From a virus (lineage: Duplodnaviria > Caudoviricetes), in the IMG/VR virus record IMGVR_UViG_3300037467_003067, positions 192,001 through 256,000 of that record: a stretch of 64,000 nt of DNA. One strand, written 5' to 3'. Positions within the stretch are counted from its first letter, which is position 1; each line of letters starts with the position of its first letter. The notes beneath the pieces were generated by a model. It was not told the DNA's origin, ran no database searches, and saw nothing but the letters and a program-made list of their open reading frames with translations. Below are positions 7,929-30,573 of this stretch, in pieces. The position numbers and the translations under genes were made by a program.

Positions 7929-7935
7929 GAAAACC

Positions 7936-8187: not shown

Positions 8188-8188
8188 C

Positions 8189-16254: not shown

Positions 16255-16839
16255 ATGAACGCAAAGACACGTGCGGAATTGATTCAGTTGGTGCGGCGGG
16301 ACGCGCTCAAGGTTGGCGCATTCAAGCTCGCCAGCGGGAGAGAATCCCACTACTACCTCGATTGCCGGAAGATCACGCTCTCTGCTGAGGGATCGCATAC
16401 GGTGGCAACCGCGATCTGCTCAGCACTTCGCAACCAGCAGGTCGATGCGATCGGCGGATTGACCATGGGCGCAGATCCGATCGTCGGGGCGGTCCTGGCA
16501 CTCTCAGCACCCATCAGGACCAAGCCGCTCCGGGGCTTCCTCGTTCGCAAGGAAGTCAAGGGGCATGGTCTGGGGCGGTTGATCGAGGGGACTTTGCGTG
16601 ACGGCGACCGTGTCGCCATCATAGAGGATGTCACGACCACGGGCGAGTCCGCGTTGCGTGCTGCCAAGGTGGTTCAGGAGGTCGGAGGCATCGTAGATGT
16701 CGTGATCTCCATCGTGGATCGCATGGAAGGTGCCGACGAGACCTTCGCGTCGCATGGCTTGGCATTCCAGCCATTATTGACTATTCGTGAGTTGGGCGTC
16801 GAACCCCAGGTTTTTTCAGCGACTCAGGTTGCCGGTTGA
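16255..16839 (+). CDS. pyrE: Orotate phosphoribosyltransferase
   Basis: FKLASGRESHYYLDCR, VRKEVKGHG, IIEDVTTTG PRPP motif. Confidence 0.95.
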   Translation: MNAKTRAELIQLVRRDALKVGAFKLASGRESHYYLDCRKITLSAEGSHTVATAICSALRNQQVDAIGGLTMGADPIVGAVLALSAPIRTKPLRGFLVRKEVKGHGLGRLIEGTLRDGDRVAIIEDVTTTGESALRAAKVVQEVGGIVDVVISIVDRMEGADETFASHGLAFQPLLTIRELGVEPQVFSATQVAG

Positions 16840-16849
16840 GGGCTTTGTC

Positions 16850-18778
16850 ATGTCAACGAAAACGGAATTTGTCGATATGCCGATGATTCCGGCTCTCCCG
16901 GCTCCCGAGCCGAAGCCGGACGTGCCGACCTATGAGTTCATCAAAGAACTCACGACCGCCATGAAGAGCGGTTCGAGTCGGAGCTTGATCCTCTCGGGCA
17001 GCGTCCAAGACCTCTTCTTCTCCAAGACAAAGTCCAAGGAGAGCTACGTCCCCCTCGTGTCGCTGCTCATCGACAAGTTTTCGTTCGACAACAAGGTCAA
17101 CGTGGGCGGCGAGGAAGTCAAACTCGCTATCCTCCAACTCGACCTCAATGACGGTATCCGGTTCCTGAATGGGTGTGAAACCTCCGTGGTCGATATGTTC
17201 GTCGCCTGGCAGATCGGTCTCAAGAAAGTCGAGCATCTGCCCGCCGCGTCGAAAACCACGATGGCGAAAGTCCCCGGTCCGACCAACCCCAGCACGAAGG
17301 GTGGCAGCCTCGAAGCAAGCCGCAAGTCCATCGTGGACACGCTCTATGCCAACCTCCGAGAAGCCCGCAACAACTACGGGACCGCCCTGCAGATCCTTCG
17401 CCGATTCGTCGAAGCCTCGCAGTTCACCAATGGTCCAAAGCTGTTGATCATCATCGAGGGTGCCGACCTGATCGTGCCAGCCGGGGGCGACCTTGCCACC
17501 TTGCCGACTTCCATGGTCCGTAAACTCGGCATCTTGGAAAGTTGGTTCTCTGACCCCGATTTCATGGACGGCAAGAGTACCGTCGTCATGTTGGCGGATT
17601 CGATGTCGGCGATCCATCCGCGAGTAACTCGGCTGATGCAGATCACGAACATCGAAGTGCCAGCGCCGAGCCTGAATGACCGCTGGCACTTCATCGACCA
17701 CTACTACCAGTCGAAGGGGAAAACCACTCAGAACAACCCCAAGGAATTCGCCGAAGAGACAGCCGGATTGTCCATCCATTCGATCCGGCAACTAATCGTG
17801 TCCCAGATTGCCTTGGATGAGACCAAGCCGATCCCATCCAAGGCAATCTCGAAACAAGTGTCCGAGTTCCTCAAGTCGCAACTCGGGGAATCCATCAAAT
17901 ACTACAAACCCAATCACAAGCTCGACGCGGTCAGGGGCAACCGCAAATTGAAGGTTTACGGTAAGGACGAACTCATTCCGCGACTCCAGTCCAAAAATTC
18001 CAGCGCCTTGCCAGCAATGGTCATCACGGGTCCGATCGGCGTCGGCAAGACCTTCTACATCGATGCGATTGCGGCTGAGATGGATTGCCCAGTCCTAGAA
18101 CTCGGCAATATCCGTAGTCAGTGGTACGGCGGCACCGACATCATCCTCGATAAATTGGAACGCCTACTCTGGGTCATCCCCAAAGTCCTGATCATGGTGC
18201 CGGAAGCCGATACGGCATTCGGCGGGGTCGACAAGGGAATCCATGATACTGAACGGCGGTTAACCGGCAAGATACAGTCCCTCATGTCCAATCCGGGTCT
18301 GAAAGGAAAGGTTTGTTGGGTCTTGGATACCGCCCGCGTCGACCAACTCAGCCCCGACATCCGGCGTCCAGGTCGAGCCGACCTGATCATTCCGATGTTT
18401 GATCCCGACGATGAGGACCGCAAGGATTTCGTCGATATGCTCTTCGACAAAATCCCTCAACTGAAGACCGCCGAAGCGATGACCAGTCTGACCTCGATAA
18501 CCAAGGGATTCTCTGCAGGTCTCTTCGGCGCGATCCGAGGGCGAATCCAGTCGGCGATCGACCAGGGCAAGATGGAATCCCTGGACCAATTGATCTGGAT
18601 CGTGAATGACACCATGGTCCCGGATATCACGACGGATCGAAGGGTGCAAGAATTGAACGCCCTCTTGAACAGCACCAGTCGGTCACTCCTGCCCGACATC
18701 TACCAGAATGGCGACATGAGTCAATACCGAGAGAAGTGGGCGAATGAGATCAAAGCCTTGAAGGGAAAAAGTGTGTGA
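16850..18778 (+). CDS. AAA+ ATPase with degenerate N-terminal AAA module
   Basis: Walker A GPIGVGKT, variant Walker B IMVPEAD, RRPGR arginine finger. Confidence 0.82.
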   Translation: MSTKTEFVDMPMIPALPAPEPKPDVPTYEFIKELTTAMKSGSSRSLILSGSVQDLFFSKTKSKESYVPLVSLLIDKFSFDNKVNVGGEEVKLAILQLDLNDGIRFLNGCETSVVDMFVAWQIGLKKVEHLPAASKTTMAKVPGPTNPSTKGGSLEASRKSIVDTLYANLREARNNYGTALQILRRFVEASQFTNGPKLLIIIEGADLIVPAGGDLATLPTSMVRKLGILESWFSDPDFMDGKSTVVMLADSMSAIHPRVTRLMQITNIEVPAPSLNDRWHFIDHYYQSKGKTTQNNPKEFAEETAGLSIHSIRQLIVSQIALDETKPIPSKAISKQVSEFLKSQLGESIKYYKPNHKLDAVRGNRKLKVYGKDELIPRLQSKNSSALPAMVITGPIGVGKTFYIDAIAAEMDCPVLELGNIRSQWYGGTDIILDKLERLLWVIPKVLIMVPEADTAFGGVDKGIHDTERRLTGKIQSLMSNPGLKGKVCWVLDTARVDQLSPDIRRPGRADLIIPMFDPDDEDRKDFVDMLFDKIPQLKTAEAMTSLTSITKGFSAGLFGAIRGRIQSAIDQGKMESLDQLIWIVNDTMVPDITTDRRVQELNALLNSTSRSLLPDIYQNGDMSQYREKWANEIKALKGKSV

Positions 18779-18814
18779 TTAACTGGAACCGGTCACGAGC
18801 AAAGAGGACTAGGC

Positions 18815-19099
18815 ATGGAAGTCCATGAGAGTGCAAAGCCACCATTCACGCCTCACCCCGAGGAAGCCGCTGAGTTTCATGTTTTCCGTGTAGGCATCGT
18901 TCATGCAGAAATATGTTCGAGCCATACGGAGACCTTGCAGGTCCAATCTCTCCTGGAAGAAGTCCACCCTGCAGGGTCGGGGAATTGCTGGAAGCTTCTC
19001 CAGAGGTCGGTGAACGGCAAGTCCTATCCTAGTTCGTGCTCCAAATTTCCGAAATCCCACTACCATTACCTATTCGCCATCGGCGAGAAAGAGAAATGA
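18815..19099 (+). CDS. Hypothetical protein
   Basis: ORF with SD GAGG. Confidence 0.6.
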   Translation: MEVHESAKPPFTPHPEEAAEFHVFRVGIVHAEICSSHTETLQVQSLLEEVHPAGSGNCWKLLQRSVNGKSYPSSCSKFPKSHYHYLFAIGEKEK

Positions 19100-19269
19100 T
19101 GCCAGATATCATCAAAACAATCGAATACAAGGGATACAACTTGGTCCAGTGCCAGTGTTTCTGTGGTTCCACTTTCCACGCCCTCAAATCGGAGGTGGAG
19201 AGTGGCGAAATCAAGTCATGCGGTCACGTCCGTGCTGGCAACATCCTGGACCGTCTCGTCGCACAGTAA
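19096..19269 (+). CDS. Small Cys-containing protein
   Basis: CQCFCG..IKSCG, like zinc module of HNH endonuclease N-termini. Confidence 0.5.
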   Translation: MMPDIIKTIEYKGYNLVQCQCFCGSTFHALKSEVESGEIKSCGHVRAGNILDRLVAQ

Positions 19270-19290
19270 ACCAATCCAGAGGAATCTTCC

Positions 19291-19698
19291 ATGCGAACCC
19301 CCGAGACACTGAAATTCGCGGTGTCCCATGAATGGGCCGCACACGACGACGCCGATATCCAGAGCGATATCATCGTCTGCGGAATCTCCCAATTCGCCGT
19401 GGACCAATTGACCGACATCATTGTCATCGACCTTCCCAAGGTCGGAACCCAAGTCACGCAAGGGAAAGCGGCGGGAGAGATCGAGTCGGTCAAAGCCGTC
19501 TCAGACATCTACTCGCCCGTGACCGGCGAGATCATCGAGGTCAATGACAAGTTGGTTTCCGATGTTTCTCTGCTCTCCAGCGATCCCTACGGAGAGGGAT
19601 GGCTCTTCAGGATTCGACCAGTCCAGGCAAACTCGGTCGAGAGTCTCATGTCCTATGAGGAATATCAAGCCCAAATTGCAAAGGAAAAGGAACACTAA
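19291..19698 (+). CDS. gcvH: Glycine cleavage system H protein
   Basis: SHEW, EIESVKAVSDIYSPVTG lipoyl-Lys motif, DPYGEGWL. Confidence 0.95.
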   Translation: MRTPETLKFAVSHEWAAHDDADIQSDIIVCGISQFAVDQLTDIIVIDLPKVGTQVTQGKAAGEIESVKAVSDIYSPVTGEIIEVNDKLVSDVSLLSSDPYGEGWLFRIRPVQANSVESLMSYEEYQAQIAKEKEH

Positions 19699-20300
19699 TG
19701 TCTTATCTCCCCACAGTAAAAAACAGAAAAAACAAAGCCGTTGAGCCGGATCGAAACCAGCAAATTGTTGCAAAGTACACCAGGTCCGACTCGACGGCTA
19801 TAAGGTCATATCCTAAAGCACAATTTGTCAGTGTGTACAGGATCACACGCCATGCCCGAGAACGATATCTCCAGAGATTTTCCAACTTATCGAAATACAA
19901 ACACATTGATTCTTGTCCTCAAAGAGATACCTGCAAGCACTGCCATTCCCTTCGCATCGCCCTCAAGCAACTCGCCGATGACCAAAGGTTCGAGGTCGAC
20001 AAGGAAATTGAACGACGGATCAACCAAGCCAAAGAAGAACGCTCTTATATCAATAATACCGAACTGATGCTTCGCCTCTGGGAAGAGTACGGCTACGATT
20101 CAAGATTCCGGTTCCTGAGAGATCAGGATGCCGTGTTCGTCATCGGTCAGAATGGTCCGATCCAGACTGTTATCACGGTATTACCCATGGGGTCTCCGAT
20201 CGGGAAACAAATCTCTGTTCATGTCAAATTCCGCAAGAAAGACAAAGGACGGCTTCCTCAACCAGAACCCGAAGAAGAAACTTACATTGCCGACAGGTGA
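19698..20300 (+). CDS. Hypothetical protein
   Basis: ITRHARERYLQR..VITVL motif reminiscent of RelE-like folds. Confidence 0.6.
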   Translation: MSYLPTVKNRKNKAVEPDRNQQIVAKYTRSDSTAIRSYPKAQFVSVYRITRHARERYLQRFSNLSKYKHIDSCPQRDTCKHCHSLRIALKQLADDQRFEVDKEIERRINQAKEERSYINNTELMLRLWEEYGYDSRFRFLRDQDAVFVIGQNGPIQTVITVLPMGSPIGKQISVHVKFRKKDKGRLPQPEPEEETYIADR

Positions 20301-20307
20301 CCCAAAG

Positions 20308-21513
20308 ATGCCAAATACTTCTCTTGACGGGATGATTGCACACCTGACCAAGGGAGCGAGGATCGAGACCAACTACAACGAGTTTCGTGACAAGCTCGCC
20401 GAAGGTCGACCATTGGTCGTGAAGTACGGCATCGATCCCACAGGGGTCGATGTCCATCTGGGTCATACCGTGCCCTTGCGTATTCTCCGGAGATTCCAGG
20501 AAGCCGGTCATCAGGCAACGATCATCATCGGTGACTTCACCGCACAGATCGGAGACCCAAGTGGTCGTAATGAGACCAGACCTCCATTATCTCGTCAGCA
20601 GATCAACGAGAACATGAAGGGCTACCTTTCGCAAATCGGCAAGTTCATCGACATGTCCAAGGTCAGGACGTTCTACAACTCCACCTGGTGTCACCGTATG
20701 CGGTTGGTGGATGTCCTCGCCGAATTCGCGCCCATAACCGCACAAAGAATGCTCGACCGCGACGACTTCTCCAAGCGGCTCAAGGAACAACAGCCCGTCT
20801 ACCTCCATGAATTCATCTATCCTGTGATCCAGGGCATCGACTCAAGAGAAATACACGCTGACGTAGAACTCGGCGGCACGGAACAACTCTATACTCTCTT
20901 GATCGCCAGAGATATCCAGCAACGCGCCGGACAACCTCAACAAACCTGCATCACGGTGCCGATCCTCCGGGGACTCGACGGCAAAAGAAGGATGGGCAAG
21001 TCCCTCAAGAACTATGTCGGGATCAATGACAGTCCTGCCGACGTGTTCGGCAAGACGATGAGCATTCCCGATGAATTGCTTCAGGAATGGTACGATCTCC
21101 TCACTGACCAAACATATAATCCCGAAAAGCACCCGAAAGGACAGAAACTCGCCCTTGCCTCCATCCTCGTCACGCAAATCTATGACAAGGAGACGGCGGC
21201 AAAAGCACAAGAAGATTGGGAGACGCAATTTTCCAAGAAGCAAGATCCCAGCGAGATTACCGAAGTCGTAATCCCGCCGCAGGAAATGTCCATCTGTCAT
21301 CTTTTGGTGGCGAGTCAACTTGCTGCCAGTCTCAGTGAAGCAAGACGTGCCATCATCCCCAACCCAAAGACAGATGGAGATGGTTCCAAGAGTAGCGTGA
21401 CACTCGGTCCCGATCGCACGAAGATCCTTGATCCCAAGACAGTGGTTGCGATCGAGGACAATATGATCCTGCGATTGGGCAAAAGGAAGATTGTCCGCAT
21501 TCGAACCAAGTAA
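20308..21513 (+). CDS. tyrS: Tyrosyl-tRNA synthetase
   Basis: GIDPT..HLGH, IGDPSGR, RMGKS, C-terminal S4 domain; start moved to MPNTSL. Confidence 0.95.
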   Translation: MPNTSLDGMIAHLTKGARIETNYNEFRDKLAEGRPLVVKYGIDPTGVDVHLGHTVPLRILRRFQEAGHQATIIIGDFTAQIGDPSGRNETRPPLSRQQINENMKGYLSQIGKFIDMSKVRTFYNSTWCHRMRLVDVLAEFAPITAQRMLDRDDFSKRLKEQQPVYLHEFIYPVIQGIDSREIHADVELGGTEQLYTLLIARDIQQRAGQPQQTCITVPILRGLDGKRRMGKSLKNYVGINDSPADVFGKTMSIPDELLQEWYDLLTDQTYNPEKHPKGQKLALASILVTQIYDKETAAKAQEDWETQFSKKQDPSEITEVVIPPQEMSICHLLVASQLAASLSEARRAIIPNPKTDGDGSKSSVTLGPDRTKILDPKTVVAIEDNMILRLGKRKIVRIRTK

Positions 21514-21537
21514 ATTGGGAACTTGGTAGATTTTACG

Positions 21538-21635
21538 TTGCCCCACTCCCTAGATGCCTATATCATTATAGATAGTCCGTCCCAATGGGGCTGGCTATCT
21601 TGTAGGCATCCATGATTCCATGCATCTAGGGAGGG
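21538..21635 (+). promoter_or_regulatory. Structured leader with internal promoter(s) and anti-SD helix
   Basis: CTCCCTAGATGC (21546-57) pairs with GCATCTAGGGAG (21622-33); TTGCCC-17-TATCAT and TATAGATA inside. Confidence 0.55.
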
Positions 21636-21639
21636 TAGA

Positions 21640-22224
21640 GTGATGAGCAGCAGAGAGGAACGTAGATCCACCAGGAGCGATCGTCGCGAGGCAATGAGCG
21701 GGAGGGACCGGAGTTCGCGACGGGATCAACCGGAAGAACGTCAGCCGGTTCGCCGCGAGGGCAGTCGGCATGGCTACCGAGCCAAGGACTACGGCTCTTG
21801 GGACGGCACCAAGGAATCGATCCCCGGCGACATCACCCGCGACAATACGCCCGACATGCGGGATGCCCGCAACCGCGAGGCATTCCTCGGGGAGTCCGAA
21901 GAAGAGCGACGGGAGCGGACCGCCCGCCAGATCCAAGGACAAAGCACGGAAGGTGGACGTCGCGACCGAACACGCAGGCGGGAACCAGAGGATCGGAGTC
22001 GGCGTACCGAATCACGGCGTGACCAAAGTGACCGATCCCAAGGGGGCGGCAGTGATCAGCCCCAACGGGCAACCATGGATGATCTCGATAGTGTCCTGAA
22101 CGATCTCGAAGACATCATCGAGGACGCCGACGACAACGATCTCCTCTCCGTGGCTGAGGACTTGTACAAGATCCAGGGGAATCTCTTGAGCGAGATCGGA
22201 CGTCGTGACCGTCCAAGGAGTTGA
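21640..22224 (+). CDS. Arg-rich disordered protein with acidic C-terminal helix
   Basis: ORF with SD GGGAGG; R/E/D/S-rich. Confidence 0.7.
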   Translation: MMSSREERRSTRSDRREAMSGRDRSSRRDQPEERQPVRREGSRHGYRAKDYGSWDGTKESIPGDITRDNTPDMRDARNREAFLGESEEERRERTARQIQGQSTEGGRRDRTRRREPEDRSRRTESRRDQSDRSQGGGSDQPQRATMDDLDSVLNDLEDIIEDADDNDLLSVAEDLYKIQGNLLSEIGRRDRPRS

Positions 22225-22243
22225 ATCTGATCTGTTCAAAAAC

Positions 22244-22283
22244 CAACGACTCGGGTACTATGTGTTGAGTACCCGAGTCGTTG
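22244..22283. terminator. 16-bp stem hairpin
   Basis: CAACGACTCGGGTACT / AGTACCCGAGTCGTTG. Confidence 0.65.
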
Positions 22284-22299
22284 AATGGAGAATGGAAAT

Positions 22300-22482
22300 A
22301 TGCCTCAAGACCTTGCAAAGATGAAGTCGAAAGTAACAGACTTCGTGACCATCGAAATTCGAGGAAGAAAAATCAAGGTGGCACGTGCCACTGCGTCACC
22401 CAATCCCGAAGGCGTCCGTGTGCTTCGCTCAATTTTTGAGTCAGCAGAGGCGATGCGGATTCGCGACTCCTTGAGAGATTGA
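22300..22482 (+). CDS. Small hypothetical protein
   Basis: Short ORF with SD. Confidence 0.45.
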   Translation: MPQDLAKMKSKVTDFVTIEIRGRKIKVARATASPNPEGVRVLRSIFESAEAMRIRDSLRD

Positions 22483-22526
22483 TTTTCGCTGCTGAAAACA
22501 AAATTGGAATTTTTTCAAAAATTGTC

Positions 22527-22555
22527 TTGTAAAATTGAAGCGACCTTGATATATT
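22527..22555 (+). promoter_or_regulatory. sigma70-like promoter of tRNA region
   Basis: TTGTAA-17 nt-TATATT with TG extended -10 and AT-rich upstream tract. Confidence 0.65.
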
Positions 22556-22609
22556 AGTACAAGACTCACTTGTAGTTCATTAGACCCTTTCAGACAAGGA
22601 ACCCGAAAA

Positions 22610-22687
22610 ATGTTATTGTCGTTGCTTAGTTTGTTTTCCTTTAGCTCGTTGCTTTATAGCAACCTGAGCATCGGAGGCATCTCGTAG
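22610..22687 (+). CDS. Putative attenuator leader peptide MLLSLLSLFSFSSLLYSNLSIGGIS
   Basis: SD AAGGA 22596-600; 8 Leu, 8 Ser, 2 Phe, 1 Tyr in 25 codons; double stop TAG TAA; terminator 27 nt downstream. Confidence 0.65.
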   Translation: MLLSLLSLFSFSSLLYSNLSIGGIS

Positions 22688-22714
22688 TAAGCGAATGGCA
22701 TACAAGGGTTCCTG

Positions 22715-22767
22715 AAAACCCGCCCGCTGAACCGAGAGACACGGTTCAGCGGGCGGGTTTTTTATTT
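22715..22767 (+). terminator. Strong intrinsic terminator
   Basis: AAAACCCGCCCGCTGAACCG-AGAGACA-CGGTTCAGCGGGCGGGTTTT then TTATTT. Confidence 0.9.
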
Positions 22768-22780
22768 GGACTTTTTGACC

Positions 22781-22809
22781 TTCCAACAAATATCCAAAAA
22801 ATGTATAAT
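22781..22809 (+). promoter_or_regulatory. Possible second promoter downstream of terminator
   Basis: TTCCAA-17 nt-TATAAT. Confidence 0.5.
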
Positions 22810-22822
22810 ACACGAGGCAACA

Positions 22823-22996
22823 ATGAAGAAAAAAGTCAACGAAGTCTTGAAACTAAAAAACAAGAAACCCTGGCAGGTGTCCCGAGGGCATCGAGTGGTC
22901 AAACAAACCGGTGGCATCCACGCCGACAAGCGGGTTGACGAGCCAGGCAAAGGCGGAAGAAAACAAGACCAATTCCGCAAGCTCATGGATGACTGA
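22823..22996 (+). CDS. Small basic protein
   Basis: MKKKVNEV.. with SD GAGG. Confidence 0.6.
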   Translation: MKKKVNEVLKLKNKKPWQVSRGHRVVKQTGGIHADKRVDEPGKGGRKQDQFRKLMDD

Positions 22997-23005
22997 AATA
23001 CAAAT

Positions 23006-23077
23006 GGGACTGAGGTGTAATTAGTAGCATGTTAATCTGAAAAGTTAACGGGTCGAGTGCGATTCTCGGCGGTCCCG
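23006..23077 (+). tRNA. tRNA-Phe(GAA)
   Basis: GGGACTG/CGGTCCC acceptor, loop CTGAAAA, T-loop TGCGATT; G73 atypical. Confidence 0.8.
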
Positions 23078-23090
23078 CTTCTTTGACAAT
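23078..23090 (+). promoter_or_regulatory. boxA-like antitermination element
   Basis: CTTCTTTGACAAT resembles rrn boxA. Confidence 0.45.
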
Positions 23091-23111
23091 TTGGCAAATC
23101 TTTAAGCATAA

Positions 23112-23226
23112 TTCATTGACGATGCCCCTCGCAACCGGGGGTGCCTCACGTTGATTAAGCCGGATAAAAGCTAGGTTAGAAGCTCGCCGGTCCTAGGAGC
23201 GAGTGAAGGCTATATTCGTCAGTGAA
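23112..23226 (+). ncRNA. Unidentified ~115-nt structured RNA
   Basis: 11-bp terminal helix TTCATTGACGA/TCGTCAGTGAA enclosing several hairpins. Confidence 0.55.
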
Positions 23227-23263
23227 AAACAATTTAAACAATAACTTAAATTCAAACTAAGCA

Positions 23264-23515
23264 ATGAAAAAAGTAATTCACGTTAATCAACACAAGATTA
23301 AAAGTAACCGTAAAACAGGTCTTAACGAACCGGTCCTTACCGTCAAGACCTACAAGACTAATGACTACGCTCACGAGGTCTACATCGACGGACCCTGTAA
23401 GATCATCTATCGTCCAAATAAGCCGCTCTCGTGCGGTGCCGAAGTCTGGATCGAGGTAGAGAGCGGGGTTGAAGTGGAGATAACTGATTTTCAGGGAGAG
23501 AATAGAGATGGATAA
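23264..23515 (+). CDS. Phage hypothetical protein
   Basis: VIHVNQH..KPLSCGAEVWIE, a pattern I recall from phage proteins. Confidence 0.7.
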   Translation: MKKVIHVNQHKIKSNRKTGLNEPVLTVKTYKTNDYAHEVYIDGPCKIIYRPNKPLSCGAEVWIEVESGVEVEITDFQGENRDG

Positions 23516-23705
23516 CAGCAAAAATGAGGAACCAAAAATAAGGTCGTGGACTAAATTTTTGGATGCCATCTTTCCTTGGAACGGCGGTACTTGTCGGATC
23601 TGCCGCCAAAAATTTAAAACAGACGAACAATGGCATCACGTAGATGGATTGTTTGGCTATCAAATATGGAGATGTAATTGTAAAGGAAGATCGATCAATA
23701 GGTAA
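23508..23705 (+). CDS. Small Cys-rich protein
   Basis: CxxC..CxC; overlaps previous gene. Confidence 0.5.
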   Translation: MDNSKNEEPKIRSWTKFLDAIFPWNGGTCRICRQKFKTDEQWHHVDGLFGYQIWRCNCKGRSINR

Positions 23706-23717
23706 ACATTATCAAAC

Positions 23718-23794
23718 GGCAGTGTAGGAGAATTGGCATATCCGCTCAGTTCAGACCTGAGTGCTTTTGTGGGTTTCGAATCCCACCACTGCCA
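23718..23794 (+). tRNA. tRNA-Leu(CAG)
   Basis: GGCAGTG/CACTGCC, loop TTCAGAC; short variable region, 8-nt T-loop. Confidence 0.8.
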
Positions 23795-23800
23795 TCATAT

Positions 23801-23882
23801 GTCCACCTGGGGGAATTAGCAGACCCGTGGTACTCAAAATGCCATGCCGAGAGGCGTACCGGTGCGAGTCCGGTGGTGGATA
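23801..23882 (+). tRNA. tRNA-Leu(CAA)
   Basis: GTCCACC/GGTGGAT, loop CTCAAAA, variable arm, T-loop TGCGAGT. Confidence 0.88.
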
Positions 23883-23884
23883 CT

Positions 23885-23967
23885 GCCAGGACGTGGCGTA
23901 AAGGCAGCCGCGCTAGTCTTAGGAACTAGTCCCGTAAGGGGTGAGGGTTCAACTCCCTCCGTCCGTA
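23885..23967 (+). tRNA. tRNA-Leu(UAG), irregular acceptor stem
   Basis: Loop CTTAGGA, variable arm; acceptor GC(CA)GGACG/CGTCCGT needs a 2-nt bulge. Confidence 0.72.
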
Positions 23968-23973
23968 CTACAT

Positions 23974-24055
23974 GACCATCTGGGGGAATTAGCAGACCCA
24001 TGGCACTTAAAATGCCATACCGCAAGGTGTCTCAGTGCAAATCTGAGGATGGTTA
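23974..24055 (+). tRNA. tRNA-Leu(UAA)
   Basis: GACCATC/GATGGTT, loop CTTAAAA, T-loop TGCAAAT. Confidence 0.88.
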
Positions 24056-24062
24056 CTCGAAT

Positions 24063-24143
24063 GCGTCGGCTGGGCATTGACGAGCCCAAGTGGCTGTAAC
24101 CCACTCGCCTCTGGCTGTGGCGGTTTAACTCCGTCCCGACGCA
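24063..24143 (+). tRNA. tRNA-Tyr(GUA)
   Basis: GCGTCGG/CCGACGC, loop CTGTAAC, variable arm. Confidence 0.88.
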
Positions 24144-24163
24144 CTTTATTCAGGAGAAGACCA

Positions 24164-24346
24164 ATGGCGAAGAAAAAGATGACGATTCCGGAGCAGATCA
24201 AGCACGAGGAAGCGTACGTGGACTTCCTTCGCAAGCGATTGGATTCCGAGAACTACAAATCCAGTGTAGCTCCGGAAGAGTACCAAAAGACCAAAGAGAA
24301 GTATAACAAGGCGAAGTTTCGACTGAAGACCTTGAAGACTAAGTAA
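24164..24346 (+). CDS. Small basic protein
   Basis: MAKKKMTIPEQ.. with SD AGGAG. Confidence 0.7.
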   Translation: MAKKKMTIPEQIKHEEAYVDFLRKRLDSENYKSSVAPEEYQKTKEKYNKAKFRLKTLKTK

Positions 24347-24359
24347 AACAAATCAATCA

Positions 24360-24444
24360 GACCTTGTGCTGGAACAGGTATACAGCGTCGGCTTAGACCC
24401 GACGGTCCCTAGTAGACATGAGGGTTCGACTCCCTCCAAGGTCA
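24360..24444 (+). tRNA. tRNA-Leu(UAG)
   Basis: GACCTTG/CAAGGTC, loop CTTAGAC. Confidence 0.9.
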
Positions 24445-24450
24445 TTTTAT

Positions 24451-24534
24451 CGTCCCGTGCTGGAATTGGTATACAGCACCGATTGAGGATCGGTGATCCT
24501 TAGTGATATGAGGGTTCGACTCCCTTCGGGACGA
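24451..24534 (+). tRNA. tRNA-Leu(GAG)
   Basis: CGTCCCG/CGGGACG, loop TTGAGGA. Confidence 0.9.
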
Positions 24535-24590
24535 CTAAATAATTATTGGATAAAAACCATATAAAAGTTAGGATTCAACTATGTTATTGA

Positions 24591-25328
24591 ATGGCAAACT
24601 CAAATGTAGAATATACTAAAGAACTTCTAGAACCATTAGTCAAAACTAGCTATTCAGTAGCCCAAGTATTACGAAAACTTGGTAAAAGATTAGACGGAGG
24701 CGTTCATTCTCATTTATCTAAAACAATTAAAAACTTAGAATTGGATACATCTCATTTTACGGGACAAAGAAGCAACTGCGGTCCGAATCACAAAGGAGGA
24801 CTTCGCAGAAGAACATGGCAAGAAGTATTAGTTTTAAGGGCTAACGATAGAAGAAAAGAAGACACATACTTATTAAGACGCGCATTAATTGAATTTGGTC
24901 GTGAATATGTTTGTAGTAATGAAAAGTGTAAAATAGCAGGAGAGTGGCTAGGACAAGAAATAACCTTAGAAATTAATCATAAAGACTGTGATTGGTCGAA
25001 CAATAAACCAGAGAACTTAGAGTTTTTGTGTCCTAATTGCCATTCTCAATACCACAAATTTCTGACACAGTCCAAACGCAAGCATAATAGACAGATTAAA
25101 ACCAAATCTAATAAGTCTAATCATTGCGTTGATTGTAACAAAGCAATATATAATAAATCTACTCGATGTAAATCATGTCAAGGTAAAACATCTCCCAATA
25201 AAATTAATTGGCCGCCAACTAATGTTTTAATTGAAATGGTCCAACAAAGTAATTACTTAGCTGTGTCAAGACAGCTAGGAGTATCTGATAACGCAATTCG
25301 TAAGAGAATTAAAAATCACGCCGCTTAG
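24591..25328 (+). CDS. HNH homing endonuclease inserted in tRNA array
   Basis: LEINHKD..NNKPENLEFLCPNCHS; AT-rich. Confidence 0.85.
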   Translation: MANSNVEYTKELLEPLVKTSYSVAQVLRKLGKRLDGGVHSHLSKTIKNLELDTSHFTGQRSNCGPNHKGGLRRRTWQEVLVLRANDRRKEDTYLLRRALIEFGREYVCSNEKCKIAGEWLGQEITLEINHKDCDWSNNKPENLEFLCPNCHSQYHKFLTQSKRKHNRQIKTKSNKSNHCVDCNKAIYNKSTRCKSCQGKTSPNKINWPPTNVLIEMVQQSNYLAVSRQLGVSDNAIRKRIKNHAA

Positions 25329-25340
25329 TGTAGCATAAGT

Positions 25341-25427
25341 GACCTTGTGGTGAAATTGGCGAGACACGGCGGGCTTAAACCCCGTTGCCTGTTAAAGGGC
25401 ATCCCAGTTCGAATCTGGGCAAGGTTA
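25341..25427 (+). tRNA. tRNA-Leu(UAA)
   Basis: GACCTTG/CAAGGTT, loop CTTAAAC. Confidence 0.9.
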
Positions 25428-25433
25428 TCATTG

Positions 25434-25515
25434 GGAGGGGTGGACACAGGCACGTCAGACCGGTTGCTAACCGGCTCGCCGGAAACGGTTGCAGGTTCAA
25501 ATCCTGTCCCCTCCG
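25434..25515 (+). tRNA. tRNA-Ser(GCU)
   Basis: GGAGGGG/CCCCTCC G73, loop TTGCTAA. Confidence 0.88.
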
Positions 25516-25574
25516 CTCAATCAAAAAATCGAGAAATAAAATGAGTATCTTTTGAGTTGACAAATACATAATGC

Positions 25575-27644
25575 ATGAGCAAAAATTTGATCAACATCAA
25601 TAACGCCTGTATCCCCAATAAGATATTGAGCGACACAATTTACCCCCTACTTAATAACGCTTTGTTGATCGAAGGACCGCAAGGACCATCGGGACCTCAA
25701 GGTGGTGGAGGCTCTTTGGAAATTGGAGGCGATATCATTGGGGGAACGGCATCATCTGTTCTCTTTGTGGGCAATTCTGGAATTCTCAATCAAGACACAT
25801 CAGGACTTGTTTACAACGTTAGCTCCAAGAGATTGGGTGTAGGTGTATCTTCTCCCACGGCAGCTTTACATGCGGCTTGCAGTTCATCATCCAGCAAAGC
25901 CGCTGTTTTTCAAGGTGCATCTGGACAATCTGCCAATATTACTGAAATTCAAAATAGCAATGGAGACATACTTCACAGTTTTGATGGCTCTGGCGTTACG
26001 ACTATCAACCACACTGCCGAGGGCGGCACATCCTACTTCAGTTATATAAATAACGTAAGTGAAAGCGCCGCGACGAGTGTTCCATTTCTTCAATCCTATG
26101 GCGGCACTCCATTTACCAATACTCCGATTGGCGGTGGCGCACCAACCTCTGTCATCGACAATGTTTTTGCACAGGGTTGGGAGCGTGTACCTGGGGAGCT
26201 ACCAGGATATACGGAGAATTGGGAACATTATTGGCACACCCAATACATGACCGAGCGTCATGGCAACTTCACATCTATTGACGGAACTGTCGCTTATCGT
26301 CCATGGTACTGGATTATCAACAATGAAACTTATCGTCTAAACCGAATTGATAGAGGATACATTTATGATTGGTTTGGACGATTAGGTACATTCCCACTTT
26401 TAAGAATCCTCACGAACGACAACGACTCTGGAAGTGTGATCATTCAGAACGACGGGACCGCCCCGCCTCTGCAAGTGACCAGTCCTGGAGGCAATGTTTC
26501 ATTCACTCTCAACCCAGATGGAGCTATCCTTGCCCAATGCGGCATCAATGCAACCTCTGATTCTCCTATCCATAACGGTGTAGGGCTATTCTCAATTGGA
26601 ACCTACTGGACGGGGAGTGCTTCTTCAGGAGCCACGACAGGAATACAAACAATTGTCGCTGGAAATAACGATTTTCATCTGCTGGCTACTTCTGGAAACG
26701 CCAATTACCGCTTCATGAATAATGGCAGAATTGGAGCCAATGTAACAACAGATCGTATAACAGAAAATATTGTTATGTCCCCTGGATATCTAGCCAGCAT
26801 CAATAACGATACTCCCGCTAATGCTACTTATCGTCTAATTGGCTTGAATGCTACAGATCAAGTGGACATTGACACAGATCGACGTGGAGTTGTATTTGGA
26901 ACTGGCATTCAATTTTCTGAGTCTGACTTTGGCAACGGTCGCATTCCCATAGTCACACTCGGCCTAACTGGAACCACAGGATCGCCTAACGGAATTGATG
27001 CAACGATTTCCACTTGGTTCCAAAGAAGGGTGGTTAGTCGAGAAATATGGATTGGAACTGACACCGACACAGGGGCCACACGCATCCAAGGATCGGGAGG
27101 TTTGACAGTAAGCTGTGGGGCTTCGGGTACGAATAATTCGTTATTCCTCTCCACCTCGGCAAATTATACCGTCGCCAATAGTTGCCGCATCCTCTTTGGA
27201 CCCCACTTCGGGTTCTTACCCGCTAACGCGAATTGCCCCTTCATGGAAGGATACAACGACCTTAGCTCAAATGGCGGCGTTGACGGTGGATTGAAGTTTG
27301 GAACCTATTATTCATCAGGCGATGGGCTGGCTGTTCGGCTGAAGATTTCTCCCATTGGATTTATTGGAATTCACGAGACATCTCCCGGTGGTCAACTCCA
27401 TGTTACCACCAGTTCCGCAACCACCATCGGAACGATTACCAGAGCCGCCCCGTCACAGACTGCAAATCTCTCCGAGTGGCAGGACAATAATGGCAATCCT
27501 TTATCTTCCATCAAGTTTAACGGGAGCTATGCGCCACCATCACTAGCCGACTCCGCAGCCGCAAACAATTCAATATATTACAGCACTACTCAATCGAAAC
27601 TATGCTACAAAGATCCAGGAGGAGTATCTAATCCACTTTACTAA
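25575..27644 (+). CDS. Tail-fibre-like structural protein
   Basis: G/S/T/N-rich; GPQGPSGPQG; repeated 'GIG..SP...LH' and 'QTANLSEWQ' modules. Confidence 0.7.
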   Translation: MSKNLININNACIPNKILSDTIYPLLNNALLIEGPQGPSGPQGGGGSLEIGGDIIGGTASSVLFVGNSGILNQDTSGLVYNVSSKRLGVGVSSPTAALHAACSSSSSKAAVFQGASGQSANITEIQNSNGDILHSFDGSGVTTINHTAEGGTSYFSYINNVSESAATSVPFLQSYGGTPFTNTPIGGGAPTSVIDNVFAQGWERVPGELPGYTENWEHYWHTQYMTERHGNFTSIDGTVAYRPWYWIINNETYRLNRIDRGYIYDWFGRLGTFPLLRILTNDNDSGSVIIQNDGTAPPLQVTSPGGNVSFTLNPDGAILAQCGINATSDSPIHNGVGLFSIGTYWTGSASSGATTGIQTIVAGNNDFHLLATSGNANYRFMNNGRIGANVTTDRITENIVMSPGYLASINNDTPANATYRLIGLNATDQVDIDTDRRGVVFGTGIQFSESDFGNGRIPIVTLGLTGTTGSPNGIDATISTWFQRRVVSREIWIGTDTDTGATRIQGSGGLTVSCGASGTNNSLFLSTSANYTVANSCRILFGPHFGFLPANANCPFMEGYNDLSSNGGVDGGLKFGTYYSSGDGLAVRLKISPIGFIGIHETSPGGQLHVTTSSATTIGTITRAAPSQTANLSEWQDNNGNPLSSIKFNGSYAPPSLADSAAANNSIYYSTTQSKLCYKDPGGVSNPLY

Positions 27645-27771
27645 TGTATTCGTGAGTTTTTTCGTCATATCGCAGAGGTTGGATCGTTCTCGTGTGCGGG
27701 GCTGTATGCGTGCGATCCGAAACCGGTGATCGAGGTGGTCATGGAAGTGACCAAGCAGGAGTTTGAAAAGC

Positions 27772-27803
27772 TGCGAAGCCCACGGGACATTCCGTGGGCT
27801 TCG
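27772..27803. terminator. 13-bp hairpin between convergent genes
   Basis: GCGAAGCCCACGG-GACATT-CCGTGGGCTTCGC. Confidence 0.6.
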
Positions 27804-27807
27804 CTAG

Positions 27808-28275
27808 TCACTCGCCACCAGCGACAAATCTACCGCGTCGAACCATTGGACCAACGCTCGACCTGTCAGGTGCGAAGGCTAGTTGATTGTAGTTTGCACC
27901 GGGACCGCTGTGTCGTGAGAAGTGCGGAAATTCGGATGGCAATCCATTGTCGCCGTAATCGGACGGGACATGACCGGCATGAGGACCACGGCCCATTGAC
28001 GCAGCCTTGATTGGATTGGACGGCATCTCGGTTCCGTACTTCTTGTCCATGATCATGTCGATGATACGATATCGCAGTTTCTTTTCCTCTTGATCATCGT
28101 TGACCGTGTGGAGCTTATTCCAGAATTTGGCAGCCAGTGGTTTGGGGAGCATGTCGAGAAGTTGGTCGGTGTCGAGGTAGTGGAGATACGCCCAATGATT
28201 GGCGTAGTCGCTGTTGTTTTCTCGCATCGCCATATCATACTTCATTTGCTCATAGAATTGATAGAAAGATTGCAT
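27808..28275 (-). CDS. Hypothetical protein, possible virion-internal protein
   Basis: N-terminus MQSFYQFYE. Confidence 0.7.
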   Translation of the reverse strand: MQSFYQFYEQMKYDMAMRENNSDYANHWAYLHYLDTDQLLDMLPKPLAAKFWNKLHTVNDDQEEKKLRYRIIDMIMDKKYGTEMPSNPIKAASMGRGPHAGHVPSDYGDNGLPSEFPHFSRHSGPGANYNQLAFAPDRSSVGPMVRRGRFVAGGE

Positions 28276-28339
28276 GAATTGGTTTCCTAAAGAGACTAGG
28301 TGATATTTTATATAGATTGGTATAATTATTTAATATATT

Positions 28340-28421
28340 GGTAGTGATCCGAAGTTGGCGAGGACACCCGCTTGAACCGGGCTGCCCGAAAGGGTTGAGA
28401 GGTCGGCACTCTCCGCTACCG
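28340..28421 (+). tRNA. tRNA-Ser(UGA)
   Basis: GGTAGTG/CGCTACC G73, loop CTTGAAC, atypical T-loop GTCGGCA. Confidence 0.78.
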
Positions 28422-28445
28422 CTCTTATTTAGAAAGGACAAGATT

Positions 28446-28736
28446 ATGGCGGGCTATATTGCGTGCTATGAACACAGCGACAACGCGACTAAGAACAAGG
28501 CGGCGGCGATGGTCAAGGTGACATGCCAGACCGATTTCGCTGCTAAAACTGAGGAGTTCGTCAGTTTTTGTCAGCGGATTGCCAAGCTGGCGTGTGGGTT
28601 CCAGATCGAGGACACCAAGGCGTTCCTCGAAATCATCGAAAACGATTTCGAGGATCTTGCTGCTGATCTTGATGCTTTAAGAACTGACCTCAAAGAAAAC
28701 ATTGAAATTGCCGCAATCCGGGTCATGAAACTTTGA
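28446..28736 (+). CDS. Minimal EF-Ts-like protein (96 aa)
   Basis: GYIACYEH..MVKVTCQTDFAAKTEEF..LKENIEI matches EF-Ts core. Confidence 0.78.
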   Translation: MAGYIACYEHSDNATKNKAAAMVKVTCQTDFAAKTEEFVSFCQRIAKLACGFQIEDTKAFLEIIENDFEDLAADLDALRTDLKENIEIAAIRVMKL

Positions 28737-28744
28737 AATTAATC

Positions 28745-28773
28745 TTGTAGCACATATCGATATGTGCTACAAT
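28745..28773 (+). promoter_or_regulatory. Palindromic promoter/operator
   Basis: 28-bp perfect palindrome that also reads TTGTAG-17 nt-TACAAT. Confidence 0.6.
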
Positions 28774-28789
28774 AATCAAATACAAAATT

Positions 28790-28885
28790 TCAACTCCGGA
28801 AGAAGCTGCTGAGGTATATGATAAAGCAGCACTGGAGAGATGGGGAGATAAAGCAGTGACTAATAAGTCCTTAGGGCTTTTATAA
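28790..28885 (+). pseudogene. AP2 DNA-binding domain remnant
   Basis: STPEEAAEVYDKAALERWGDKAVTN with no in-frame start after TAG at 28748. Confidence 0.55.
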
Positions 28886-28904
28886 TTTGCTGAATTAAAA
28901 TCAT

Positions 28905-28991
28905 AGTAGGAAGGCGAATGTTGGTTTGTCGCGACTAGTTGGAAGCTAGTTCCAGGTAACACTGGCAGCGGTTCAATTCCGCTTCCTACTG
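28905..28991 (+). tRNA. tRNA-Ser(GGA)
   Basis: AGTAGGA/TCCTACT G73, loop TTGGAAG, long variable arm. Confidence 0.88.
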
Positions 28992-28995
28992 CTAA

Positions 28996-29088
28996 ACCCG
29001 ATAGGCGAATCGTTGGATAGTCGCGCCCAATTAACCCTTGGGTCCGTCTGAAATTACGGCGGGGCATGTTCGACTCATGTATCGGGTG
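28996..29088 (+). tRNA. Ser-type tRNA body with AAC anticodon
   Basis: ACCCGAT/ATCGGGT G73, loop TTAACCC, long variable arm, T-loop TTCGACT. Confidence 0.72.
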
Positions 29089-29092
29089 TTAT

Positions 29093-29179
29093 GGGGGATA
29101 GGTGGATGTTGGTTTGCCTCACTTATTTCGAAAATAAGACCGTCTAATCGCGGCGCAAGTTCGATTCTTGTGTCCTCCG
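29093..29179 (+). tRNA. tRNA-Ser(CGA)
   Basis: GGGGGAT/GTCCTCC G73, loop TTCGAAA. Confidence 0.85.
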
Positions 29180-29218
29180 CTTAAAGATTTGCCCTAGGAC
29201 ATGGAGGTCCTTAAATAA

Positions 29219-29722
29219 ATGATTAGAATTGCCGGACATGAATTCGCCCTCGAACTCGTCAAGCACGAGTTTCTGAGTGCGCTCATCCTCAACGACCCTG
29301 GCGACGTCTATAGAACGGTGCGACAGATACGAAGTATCGCCAGAGGCTCTCTCTATCTGGAGTTCTTCGACTTAAGCGAGGAACGCAAGACTCACCGAGG
29401 TCCCATCGCTGAGGATGTGGTCCATGCGATCGAGTGGTACAAGAAGATTCAGCGTGCGACCTGGAATGATGTCGTTGTGACCTGTACAGCAGGAATTTCC
29501 CGTAGTGCTGCGATGGCGTTTGTGTTAGAATGTGTGGACAAGACGCCGCAGGAAGCATCTCAAGTCTGGAATCCCCGTCTTCACTATCCCAACAAATTGA
29601 TTGTCCGTTTAGGTGCTGAAATTCTCAGCAAGCCGGACATGATCAAGGTCTGTGATGAGTTCTGGGATGAGCGGCTTCGGAGGCGGGCATCGAAGGGGAA
29701 ACCTGCCAAGGTCGATGTTTGA
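29219..29722 (+). CDS. Protein tyrosine phosphatase-like (CX5R)
   Basis: CTAGISRS, PN motif. Confidence 0.82.
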   Translation: MIRIAGHEFALELVKHEFLSALILNDPGDVYRTVRQIRSIARGSLYLEFFDLSEERKTHRGPIAEDVVHAIEWYKKIQRATWNDVVVTCTAGISRSAAMAFVLECVDKTPQEASQVWNPRLHYPNKLIVRLGAEILSKPDMIKVCDEFWDERLRRRASKGKPAKVDV

Positions 29723-29804
29723 CATGTCTATCATATTTCAAACCGCCAGCGGGCATACAATAACTTTCAATGACCTAGGTAAATCGATATCAGGAGACGG
29801 TAAG

Positions 29805-30140
29805 ATGTCTGAAGGTTCAGAGAAGGTGATTAAGCAGGGTGATTGGGTCCGAATTCTTCGCAACACTGTGGGGGCGATTAGTCCGCACAATGAGGGACAG
29901 ACTGCGGTCCCTTACGAGGGAATCAGGGTAGCAAAGGTCGAAGCCCGAAGCGGCAGGAACGGAGATCGCGAGACGGTCCTCTATTATATGGTAGGGAGGT
30001 CTTCGAGCTATCTGCCCGAGAAGGACGTGGAGAGGATCGAGGACTGTATCTGTGCTGGACCGGTCAAGAACGTGCTTGGCTGTCGGTGTGGATACGAGAC
30101 CATGAAGAACCATAAGGTAAAGAAAGCTCAAGGAAACTGA
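29805..30140 (+). CDS. Hypothetical protein
   Basis: SD CAGGAG before ATG 29805; start uncertain. Confidence 0.55.
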   Translation: MSEGSEKVIKQGDWVRILRNTVGAISPHNEGQTAVPYEGIRVAKVEARSGRNGDRETVLYYMVGRSSSYLPEKDVERIEDCICAGPVKNVLGCRCGYETMKNHKVKKAQGN

Positions 30141-30141
30141 G

Positions 30142-30573
30142 ATGAAAATCGTCATCAACGAGAAAGACATCAAGCGGCAGACGTTTCGCGCCGGTGGGAA
30201 GGGCGGGCAGCACCAGAACAAGACCGAGTCAGCGGTCAGGTTGACCCATATCCCCACCGGCATCATCGCCGAGTCGCGGGGCGAGCGGTGCCAGCATAAG
30301 AACAAGGAAATTGCCCTGAAGCTTTTGCTGGGCAAGATCCATCGCTACTACGAGGAGCAGGCGAATCGGAGTCAGCAGGACCAGTATAACTCCAAGGCAG
30401 ATGCGGCGTTCGGACAGCAGGTAAGGTCATACGTGTTACACGGCAAGACCCAGCAGGTGACCGATCACCGGACCGGGCACAAGGAGATGAATCCGGACCA
30501 GGTCTTACGCGGTGAGATCGACGGGTTCATCGAGGCATTTTTGAGGAAACAAATAAATGAAGGACGAGGATAA
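30142..30573 (+). CDS. Truncated class I peptide release factor (GGQ domain, RF2-like C-terminus)
   Basis: FRAGGKGGQHQNKTESAVRLTHIPTG, FGQQVRSYVL, VTDHRTG. Confidence 0.9.
   Translation: MKIVINEKDIKRQTFRAGGKGGQHQNKTESAVRLTHIPTGIIAESRGERCQHKNKEIALKLLLGKIHRYYEEQANRSQQDQYNSKADAAFGQQVRSYVLHGKTQQVTDHRTGHKEMNPDQVLRGEIDGFIEAFLRKQINEGRG

Follow-up and report, generated by a model that had tools for sequence, protein, structure and literature searches.

Why should the tRNA array of a phage be preceded by a short open reading frame (ORF) written largely in codons for the amino acids that the array itself serves? The question was raised by a 64,000-nucleotide stretch of viral DNA (Caudoviricetes), hereafter the window, which corresponds to bases 192001-256000 of the 298.6-kb IMG/VR virus record IMGVR_UViG_3300037467_003067. 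An initial annotation, made from the letters of the window, had read positions 22527-22767 as a leader-peptide attenuator whose codons match the tRNA genes downstream. We followed up this reading computationally, and it was supported by comparative and structural evidence: homologous cassettes in two related lineages (contigs L018 and L011), codon-matched leaders in a 578-kb phage, and the dual complementarity of one RNA segment. The element is probably a multivalent (Leu, Ser, Phe, Tyr), ribosome-mediated leader-peptide transcription attenuator that heads the phage tRNA array. The coordinates of its parts are collected in Table 1.

All components of the cassette were found where the initial annotation had placed them, namely the promoter, the Shine-Dalgarno (SD) sequence AAGGA, the 25-codon ORF and, 27 nt past its stop codon, the 20-bp terminator with a T-run. 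Leader codons 2-17 were confirmed to be restricted to Leu, Ser, Phe and Tyr; the tail reads Asn, Leu, Ser, Ile, Gly, Gly, Ile, Ser. This 16-codon run is the longest of its kind in the six frames of the whole record, and the runner-up, with 12 codons, is poly-Ser. The content assigned to the array stood in part: seven tRNA-Leu, one tRNA-Phe and one tRNA-Tyr were recovered, and the four tRNA-Ser proved by ARAGORN to be three plus a 93-nt long-arm tRNA with the anticodon AAC. The other anticodons are Phe GAA; Leu CAG, CAA, UAG (twice), UAA (twice) and GAG; Tyr GUA; and Ser GCU, GGA and CGA. Beyond the ATG, array tRNAs can read 19 of the 24 leader codons, the highest score among the 282,754 stop-free 24-codon segments of the record and one reached by no other; long ORFs were found to have a mean of 5.4 and a maximum of 16 array-decodable codons. 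The binomial probability of 19/24 against a background of 0.23 is about 1e-8. In terms of amino acids, the leader has Leu 8, Ser 8, Phe 2 and Tyr 1, and the array Leu 7, Ser 3 (plus the odd one), Phe 1 and Tyr 1; each of the 10 distinct canonical array anticodons is sampled at least once.

A leader with such a function should track the content of its array in related phages, which the initial annotation had named as a check of the idea. Relatives were reached by protein look-ups in Logan and JGI contigs, using the tyrosyl-tRNA synthetase (TyrRS) encoded upstream of the array and then a mini EF-Ts encoded within it as anchors. TyrRS identity to the window was 60% for the L004/L018 samples and 51% for L011, and L018 was found via mini EF-Ts in the same samples as the 60%-TyrRS lineage. 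The arrays are homologous, with the order tRNA-Phe, mini EF-Ts, tRNA-Ser(GGA), and the mini EF-Ts of the window and L011 are 47% identical (E 2e-25). In both L018 and L011, a cassette of promoter, SD, 25-26-codon ORF and terminator heads the homologous array. The three leaders align in frame (25, 25 and 26 codons) and have an ancestral TAA stop column in common, the TAG of the window lying one codon earlier. In L018, the T-tract of the terminator is only 17 nt from the SD/ATG of a 58-codon ORF, which is followed by two tRNA-Phe, Leu, Tyr and more; in L011, tRNA-Phe lies only about 15 nt past the terminator. Since these gaps are too small for a promoter, the downstream genes of L018 and L011 should depend on read-through.

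The predicted tracking was found in both relatives and, as described below, in the 578-kb phage. Codons 2-19 of the L018 leader are again Leu, Ser, Phe and Tyr only, and 19 of its 24 codons are likewise decodable by its array (leader Leu 8, Ser 8, Phe 3, Tyr 1; array Leu 6, Ser 2, Phe 2, Tyr 1, with one Ile call). The differences between the window and L018 leaders inside the run remain in, or shift into, the same four-amino-acid set: Leu is retained across a two-base TTG-to-CTC change, and the sole Tyr codon is retained at a different position. L011 lacks a tRNA-Tyr and has few tRNA-Leu genes, and its leader has no Tyr and fewer Leu codons (leader Ser 6, Phe 3, Leu 3; array Phe, an odd GAGA tRNA, Ser GCU and Ser GGA, the Ser GCU being detected at the 90% ARAGORN threshold). 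At the level of sequence comparison, leader composition is seen to follow array content across the lineages.

The second line of evidence comes from predicted RNA structure. The leader region of the window folds with -87 kcal/mol (z = -6.8 against 200 shuffles). As had been noted initially, AGGAACCC (22597-604) is exactly complementary to GGGTTCCT (22706-13), and the two are paired in the minimum free energy (MFE) fold. Together with AUGUUAU and UCGUU/GCU, AGGAACCC forms the region 1 strand that pairs with 22686-22713. The start codon is base-paired by the 1:2 helix in all three lineages, through AUGUUAU:AUGGCAU in the window and through an 11-bp helix in each of L018 and L011. When region 1 was masked, region 2 was predicted in all three lineages to pair with the 5' arm and loop of the terminator. 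The antiterminator had been described as only about 5 bp; in the window it amounts instead to about 17 bp in four short helices (UCUCG:CGAGA, AGCG:CGCU, GGC:GCC and GGGUU:AACCC; -18.4 kcal/mol) that use the terminator 5' arm and loop. The corresponding structures have helices of 8 + 3 + 3 + 4 bp (-19.8 kcal/mol) in L018 and of 8 + 4 + 6 bp (-25.8 kcal/mol) in L011. The earlier caveat of a weak antiterminator is largely settled by this modelled set of 17-18-bp alternative helices.

The outermost 2:3 helix, which joins the ORF end to the upper arm and loop, differs by lineage (UCUCG:CGAGA, CUUGGGUU:AACCCAAG and GUCUUGGU:ACCAAGAC) and is accompanied by two or three further short helices in each. 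The terminator loops have thus diverged in sequence and yet remain complementary to the ORF end, as expected of an antiterminator, since the sequence of a terminator loop is otherwise free to vary. The MAFFT columns contain one compensatory change, from C-G to U-A. Dinucleotide shuffles of region 2 reached both observed energies in 0 of 1500 cases for the window, 0 of 1500 for L018 and 3 of 1500 for L011. All three lineages have a hairpin inside the ORF, in which two changes are compensatory and two one-sided; it could be an RNA polymerase pause hairpin. The predicted anatomy corresponds in each of its parts to that of a classical attenuator, region 1 having shifted onto the SD and AUG.

The effect of a ribosome on these folds was assessed in silico by MFE folding with a single ribosome at each P-site codon, or with a queued second ribosome in addition. 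In L018, the full antiterminator formed with the P site at codons 1-19 and collapsed at codons 20-26, a permissive range that coincides with the Leu/Ser/Phe/Tyr run (codons 2-19). In L011 the agreement was partial: it formed at codons 1-11, and at codons 1-17 with a queued ribosome. The leader stop codon of the cassette lies on the 5' strand of the antiterminator. From this anatomy and the comparison, we infer the following course of events. Host RNA polymerase would initiate near 22562. If the leader were untranslated, or were read fast to its stop, region 2 would be paired with region 1 or covered by the terminating ribosome; the 20-bp terminator would then fold, and the transcript would end at about 22762-22770. 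If charged Leu, Ser, Phe or Tyr tRNAs were scarce, the lead ribosome would be slow at codons 2-17 and ribosomes would occupy region 1, leaving region 2 to pair with region 3. With the antiterminator formed, the polymerase would go on to transcribe the small ORF, tRNA-Phe and the array. A build-up of phage tRNAs would speed up the decoding of the leader and bring termination back, which would make the cassette a negative-feedback homeostat for the tRNA species that the array supplies. The scarcity that would trigger the switch could arise from a codon-usage mismatch, from host tRNA nucleases or from shut-off by the phage.

An independent test of the codon match was offered by a megaphage that the mini-EF-Ts profile also matched; its genome of 578,292 bp is complete, has terminal repeats and gave 71 tRNA matches. 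A homologue of the AAA protein encoded upstream of the window array was not found in this phage, and it was therefore treated as unrelated apart from mini EF-Ts. Its mini EF-Ts lies inside a tRNA array, and its tRNA blocks are sorted by amino acid. An SD-led ORF of 30 codons, confined to Ser, His, Tyr and Cys at codons 6-18, precedes by 148 nt a block of Ser (three), Cys, Tyr (two) and His tRNAs; after the ORF come T-tracts and repeats of CCCCG/CGGGG segments. A block of three Arg tRNAs and Leu is preceded by an Arg/Leu-rich leader with a terminator, three Thr tRNAs by a Thr-rich 13-codon ORF, Arg(UCU) by an ORF with four terminal Arg codons, and a 24-tRNA array of nine amino acids by a 46-codon ORF, 80% in-set and with a terminator. 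The binomial probabilities of these matches range from 6e-4 to 3e-7, and the true pairing of leaders with blocks ranks first among 120 permutations. Because these leaders use different alphabets, a hydrophobic peptide and an artefact of U-rich sequence are both excluded as explanations of the window leader.

Several observations weigh against the attenuator. For the window itself, the weakest point is the ribosome-masked folding, where a single ribosome permitted the antiterminator only at codons 1-3 (with a queued ribosome, at 1-3, 11-15 and 19); at other positions, the 8-bp SD/anti-SD helix re-formed behind the ribosome. Taken alone, the window antiterminator is only marginally better than shuffles (p about 0.05). 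In all lineages the terminator (-38 to -44 kcal/mol) is far stabler than the antiterminator (-18 to -26 kcal/mol), so the switch must be kinetic. The second promoter-like site at 22781-22809, to which the initial annotation had drawn attention, is present, but in the window alone, there being no space for one in L018 and L011; this site, or an 11/12 promoter match at 23083-23112 past tRNA-Phe that the promoter scan returned, could drive the array independently in the window. The codon-level match of L011 is weak (7/25), the window leader has two Ile codons and no corresponding tRNA-Ile, and L018 has a tRNA-Ile call and no Ile codon. The 578-kb leaders were chosen as the upstream ORF richest in the amino acids of the block, which is a selection bias; two of these candidates are without a clear terminator, and several blocks are without a convincing leader. 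Finally, just three homologous lineages are known, all of them metagenomic.

These weaknesses leave room for other explanations. One that we consider unlikely is a translation-independent RNA element (a structured 5' leader, a small RNA, or a 3'-protective hairpin freed by RNase P at tRNA-Phe), with the ORF composition a by-product of U/G-rich strands. The very stable fold is in keeping with such an element, nucleotide conservation of the ORF coincides with the conserved hairpin, and terminated attenuator RNAs can act in trans, as reported for rnTrpL (PMC6614838). However, the frame, the ORF length, the SD spacing and the stop column are all conserved, Leu is kept across the codon change described above and Tyr at a shifted position, and the composition is extreme genome-wide in one frame only. 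Moreover, the unrelated leaders of the 578-kb phage use other alphabets that match their own blocks. An Rfam scan of positions 20000-31000 (cmscan, E<=1) returned only tRNAs and chance miRNA matches; in particular, the Leu_leader, Phe_leader, Thr_leader, His_leader, Trp_leader and T-box models were unmatched.

Slightly less likely still is an independent gene for a hydrophobic micro-protein, either a membrane peptide or a type-I-toxin-like one, with its own promoter and a constitutive terminator, in which SD sequestration by the 3' end tunes translation, as in mRNAs of the hok or tisB type, and the tRNAs are transcribed from other promoters. The window and L018 peptides are indeed hydrophobic (mean Kyte-Doolittle values 1.40 and 1.22) with about two-thirds of positions identical, type I toxin mRNAs typically hide their SD and AUG in a 5'-3' fold-back of this kind, and the window has promoter-like sites past the terminator. 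In contrast, the homologous peptide of L011 lacks hydrophobic character (mean hydropathy -0.01; it contains Arg, Asp, Lys, Gln and Pro), and the 578-kb leaders are polar (Ser/His/Tyr/Cys, Thr, Arg), each matching its own tRNA block. The complementarity of region 2 to the terminator arm and loop would not be predicted for a self-contained gene, and the L018 and L011 terminators leave no space for a promoter ahead of the next gene or tRNA. No antisense promoter or partner RNA was seen; the promoter scan returned no minus-strand site in 22527-22770, although no dedicated search was made. The least probable alternative is an attenuator that is coupled to translation but gauges overall translation capacity (ribosome availability, antibiotic or shut-off stress), not the supply of specific tRNAs. 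It would suit a start region that is buried by default, where a change in initiation rate would alter the fold, and a bacterial tRNA array is inducible by translational stress (PMC8421152, which does not mention attenuation). Such a sensor would, however, not need a restricted codon alphabet, let alone one that differs between lineages, and among the cassettes within a single phage, in step with the array.

The attenuator reading can be set beside known systems. As in the enterobacterial attenuators (the multivalent ilvGMEDA, Ile/Leu/Val, and thr, Thr/Ile; leuL, pheL, hisL and trpL), a promoter-proximal short ORF is rich in regulatory codons, the 1:2, 2:3 and 3:4 helices are mutually exclusive, 3:4 is an intrinsic terminator stronger than the antiterminator, and the stop codon is positioned such that a terminating ribosome would block region 2. 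Unlike in those attenuators, the genes controlled would be phage tRNAs with small ORFs, not biosynthetic enzymes, and the output would replenish the sensed molecule; region 1 is the SD and AUG itself and not internal to the ORF, the regulatory amino acids are four in number, the carrier is a phage, and there is no sequence relation to the Rfam leader models. The pheM leader of E. coli pheST is a leader-peptide attenuator that, as proposed here, serves the translation apparatus and senses through Phe codons, but it is cellular, senses one amino acid and controls phenylalanyl-tRNA synthetase, whereas tRNA genes of a virus are concerned here. T-box riboswitches tune translation-supply genes to the state of specific tRNAs by a choice between terminator and antiterminator, as the present element would; they bind uncharged tRNA directly and need no ORF, whereas the present element has an SD-led ORF. 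A T-box or another known Rfam leader was considered as a candidate and rejected, as there was no T-box motif, specifier-loop architecture or Rfam match. Type I toxin mRNAs (hok, ldr, tisB, ibs) resemble the cassette in having a small ORF (with a hydrophobic product in the window and L018), a start buried by long-range 5'-3' pairing and a strong terminator; they differ in that peptide character is not conserved here and the downstream genes would rely on read-through.

Textbooks describe leader-peptide attenuation for amino-acid biosynthesis, and it is also known for certain synthetase and resistance genes; to our knowledge it is not known for tRNA genes. In full-text literature searches, no account of tRNA genes under the control of a leader peptide was found. 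What is new here is probably the application of a known attenuation mechanism to such genes. A further-reaching possibility, which we put forward tentatively, is that the leader performs a four-amino-acid "decoding audit": it would detect the depletion of host Leu, Ser and Tyr tRNAs (the long-variable-arm tRNAs) and tRNA-Phe, whether the cause were host anticodon nucleases or shut-off by the phage itself, and switch on replacements, and it would be one of a widespread class of giant-phage elements with a codon-matched attenuator for each tRNA block.

Table 1. Positions of the predicted attenuator cassette, its neighbours and the corresponding features of other contigs.
Feature	Position	Strand	Remarks
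Window			
Sigma-70-type promoter-like site	22527-22555	+	TTGTAA, 17-nt spacer, TATATT, TG before the -10; start expected near 22562
Shine-Dalgarno AAGGA	22596-22600	+	9 nt before ATG
Region 1	22597-22626	+	SD, AUG, codons 1-6; 5' strand of the predicted default anti-antiterminator helix
Leader ORF	22610-22687	+	25 codons; stop TAG, in-frame TAA directly after
Candidate pause hairpin	22644-22669	+	inside the ORF, codons 12-20
Region 2	22680-22713	+	last two codons, stop and 26 nt beyond; predicted partner region 1 or region 3
Terminator	22715-22761	+	perfect 20-bp stem, 27 nt after the leader stop, then T-run
Region 3	22715-22741	+	terminator 5' arm and loop; pairs with region 2 in the predicted antiterminator
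Region 4	22742-22770	+	terminator 3' arm and T-tract; 3:4 hairpin 20 bp, -41.5 kcal/mol
Second promoter-like site	22781-22809	+	TTCCAA-17-TATAAT; window only, absent from L018 and L011
57-codon ORF	22823-22996	+	between terminator and tRNA-Phe; without family match
Co-oriented tRNA array	23006-29180	+	13 tRNAs by ARAGORN; proposed controlled unit
Mini EF-Ts	28446-28736		in ORF 28338-28736
L018			
Leader ORF	450-527		25 codons; AAGGG 8 nt before ATG; -35 TTGCAA with the same flanks as in the window
Terminator	552-596		19-bp
tRNA array	806-6435		
Mini EF-Ts	5925-6293		
L011			
Cassette	7030-7277		TTGAAA-17-TATACT at the equivalent place; AGGAG 6 nt before ATG; 26-codon ORF; about 19-bp GC-rich terminator
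tRNA array	7277-8580		
Mini EF-Ts	7963-8475		
578-kb phage			
Ser/His/Tyr/Cys leader ORF	L103:8559-8651		30 codons, SD-led
Mini EF-Ts	L103:10001-10276		

The arrays of the window, L018 and L011 are limited to Leu, Ser and Tyr, the bacterial tRNAs with a long variable arm, and Phe. Several of the "Leu" genes (window 23718-23794; L018 1514-1587, 1695-1769, 1775-1851 and 3052-3127) lack that arm, because they are just 74-77 nt long. The AAC tRNA of the window (28996-29088), called as Val by ARAGORN, lies between tRNA-Ser(GGA) and tRNA-Ser(CGA) and went unreported by the Rfam tRNA model at E<=1. The odd tRNA-like gene of L011 (7375-7443; 69 nt, 8-nt anticodon loop with GAGA) was labelled "Leu|Ser" by ARAGORN and might either decode four bases or be a degenerate Leu(GAG). 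A conserved motif directly follows the first tRNA-Phe, CTTCTTTGACAATT in the window (23079-23095) and L018 (about 879-895) and CTATTTGATAATTCGG in L011 (7353-7370). In the window it doubles as the -35 of the 23083-23112 site; in L018 and L011 the next tRNA is too close for such a role. The 57-codon ORF of the window was rejected as a conserved part of the cassette, since it shows no relation to the 58-codon ORF that takes this position in L018.

The window array also encodes an HNH endonuclease, a 689-aa ORF and mini EF-Ts. The first is a homing endonuclease (24591-25328; phrog_10822, E 1.6e-51) inserted among the tRNA genes, and an HNH gene is found near TyrRS in L011 too (4045-4800). Mini EF-Ts (about 96 aa with the TDF-motif region) lies directly upstream of tRNA-Ser(GGA) in three lineages; its homologues in the Caulobacter phages CcrColossus and CcrPW sit outside tRNA arrays. 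Just downstream of the window array, at 30142-30573, is a gene for a 143-aa protein that has only the RF-1/GGQ domain (phrog_19918 and RF-1 domain families) and is kept in L018 (7798-8214); the protein might act on stalled ribosomes as a codon-independent peptidyl-tRNA hydrolase.

In the 578-kb phage, several of the block leaders begin at a common promoter-like motif (GTTGACGA..., about 17 nt, TAAATA), seen at about L107 1190-1215, on the minus strand of L112 upstream of 743 and at L103 8300-8440. The ATG lies within about 5 nt of this motif, and these mini-ORFs may be leaderless or near-leaderless. Two adjacent tRNAs with the anticodon CUA (amber suppressors, called "Pyl" by ARAGORN) occupy L103 14866-15022 on the minus strand, which hints at TAG recoding in this phage.

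The record from which the window was taken has an estimated completeness of 59%, and the TyrRS of the window is also present on a 585-kb contig. The window carries phage-type replication genes (SbcC-like nuclease, helicase, DNA polymerase and homing endonucleases), and its DNA occurs in sequencing runs from soil and rhizosphere metagenomes, among which no RNA run is listed. L003 represents the same phage (1 mismatch in 7.3 kb), and the contigs from four DNA runs were identical to the window, without micro-diversity. The AAA ATPase, (GCV_H-like protein,) TyrRS synteny upstream of the array (window 16787-21513) is kept in equivalents in L004, L011 and L017. The closest cellular homologues of TyrRS and the AAA ATPase are planctomycete (Gemmatales, Pirellulales) at about 40-50% identity, which suggests the host phylum. 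An RNA polymerase beta subunit was not found in the 298 kb of the record, and one sigma-70-family protein (Sigma70_r2, 26.3 bits) is encoded outside the window on the minus strand (G000:C1:176705-176887); this gene content is consistent with the use of host polymerase and intrinsic terminators. The record has only three further tRNAs (Val, Leu and Cys), on the minus strand and distant from the array, and none of them is preceded by a leader cassette.

Further relatives were sought with several probes. Megablast gave no close relative in the phage collection, and viral contigs had no match to TyrRS, to an alignment of the AAA protein or to two DNA patterns of the leader. Among metagenome contigs, the AAA alignment had no match, and a degenerate leader pattern gave 52 matches, about the number expected by chance, of which none was leader-like. 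Contigs of the L004 family stop 2.5 kb past TyrRS and L017 is too short, neither carrying tRNAs; the short mini-EF-Ts contigs L079-L081 end before any leader. In L022-L026, L104-L106, CcrColossus and CcrPW, mini EF-Ts lies outside a comparable cassette. Matches among genome contigs were bacterial EF-Ts-like, and the two that were scanned, L088 and L089, were without tRNAs.

If the attenuator reading is true, the cassette would sense how fast particular codons are decoded and yield the very tRNAs that decode them, in a direct feedback loop. A promoter, a short ORF in the amino acids of the block and a terminator whose arm and loop complement the ORF end would then provide a sequence rule for the tRNAs that a phage treats as limiting, and such cassettes, as compact sensors of tRNA supply with several inputs, could be put to use as reporters. 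Phage tRNA arrays would be regulated, demand-driven modules, not constitutive cargo, which bears on why giant phages carry particular sets of tRNAs and on when those tRNAs are expressed.

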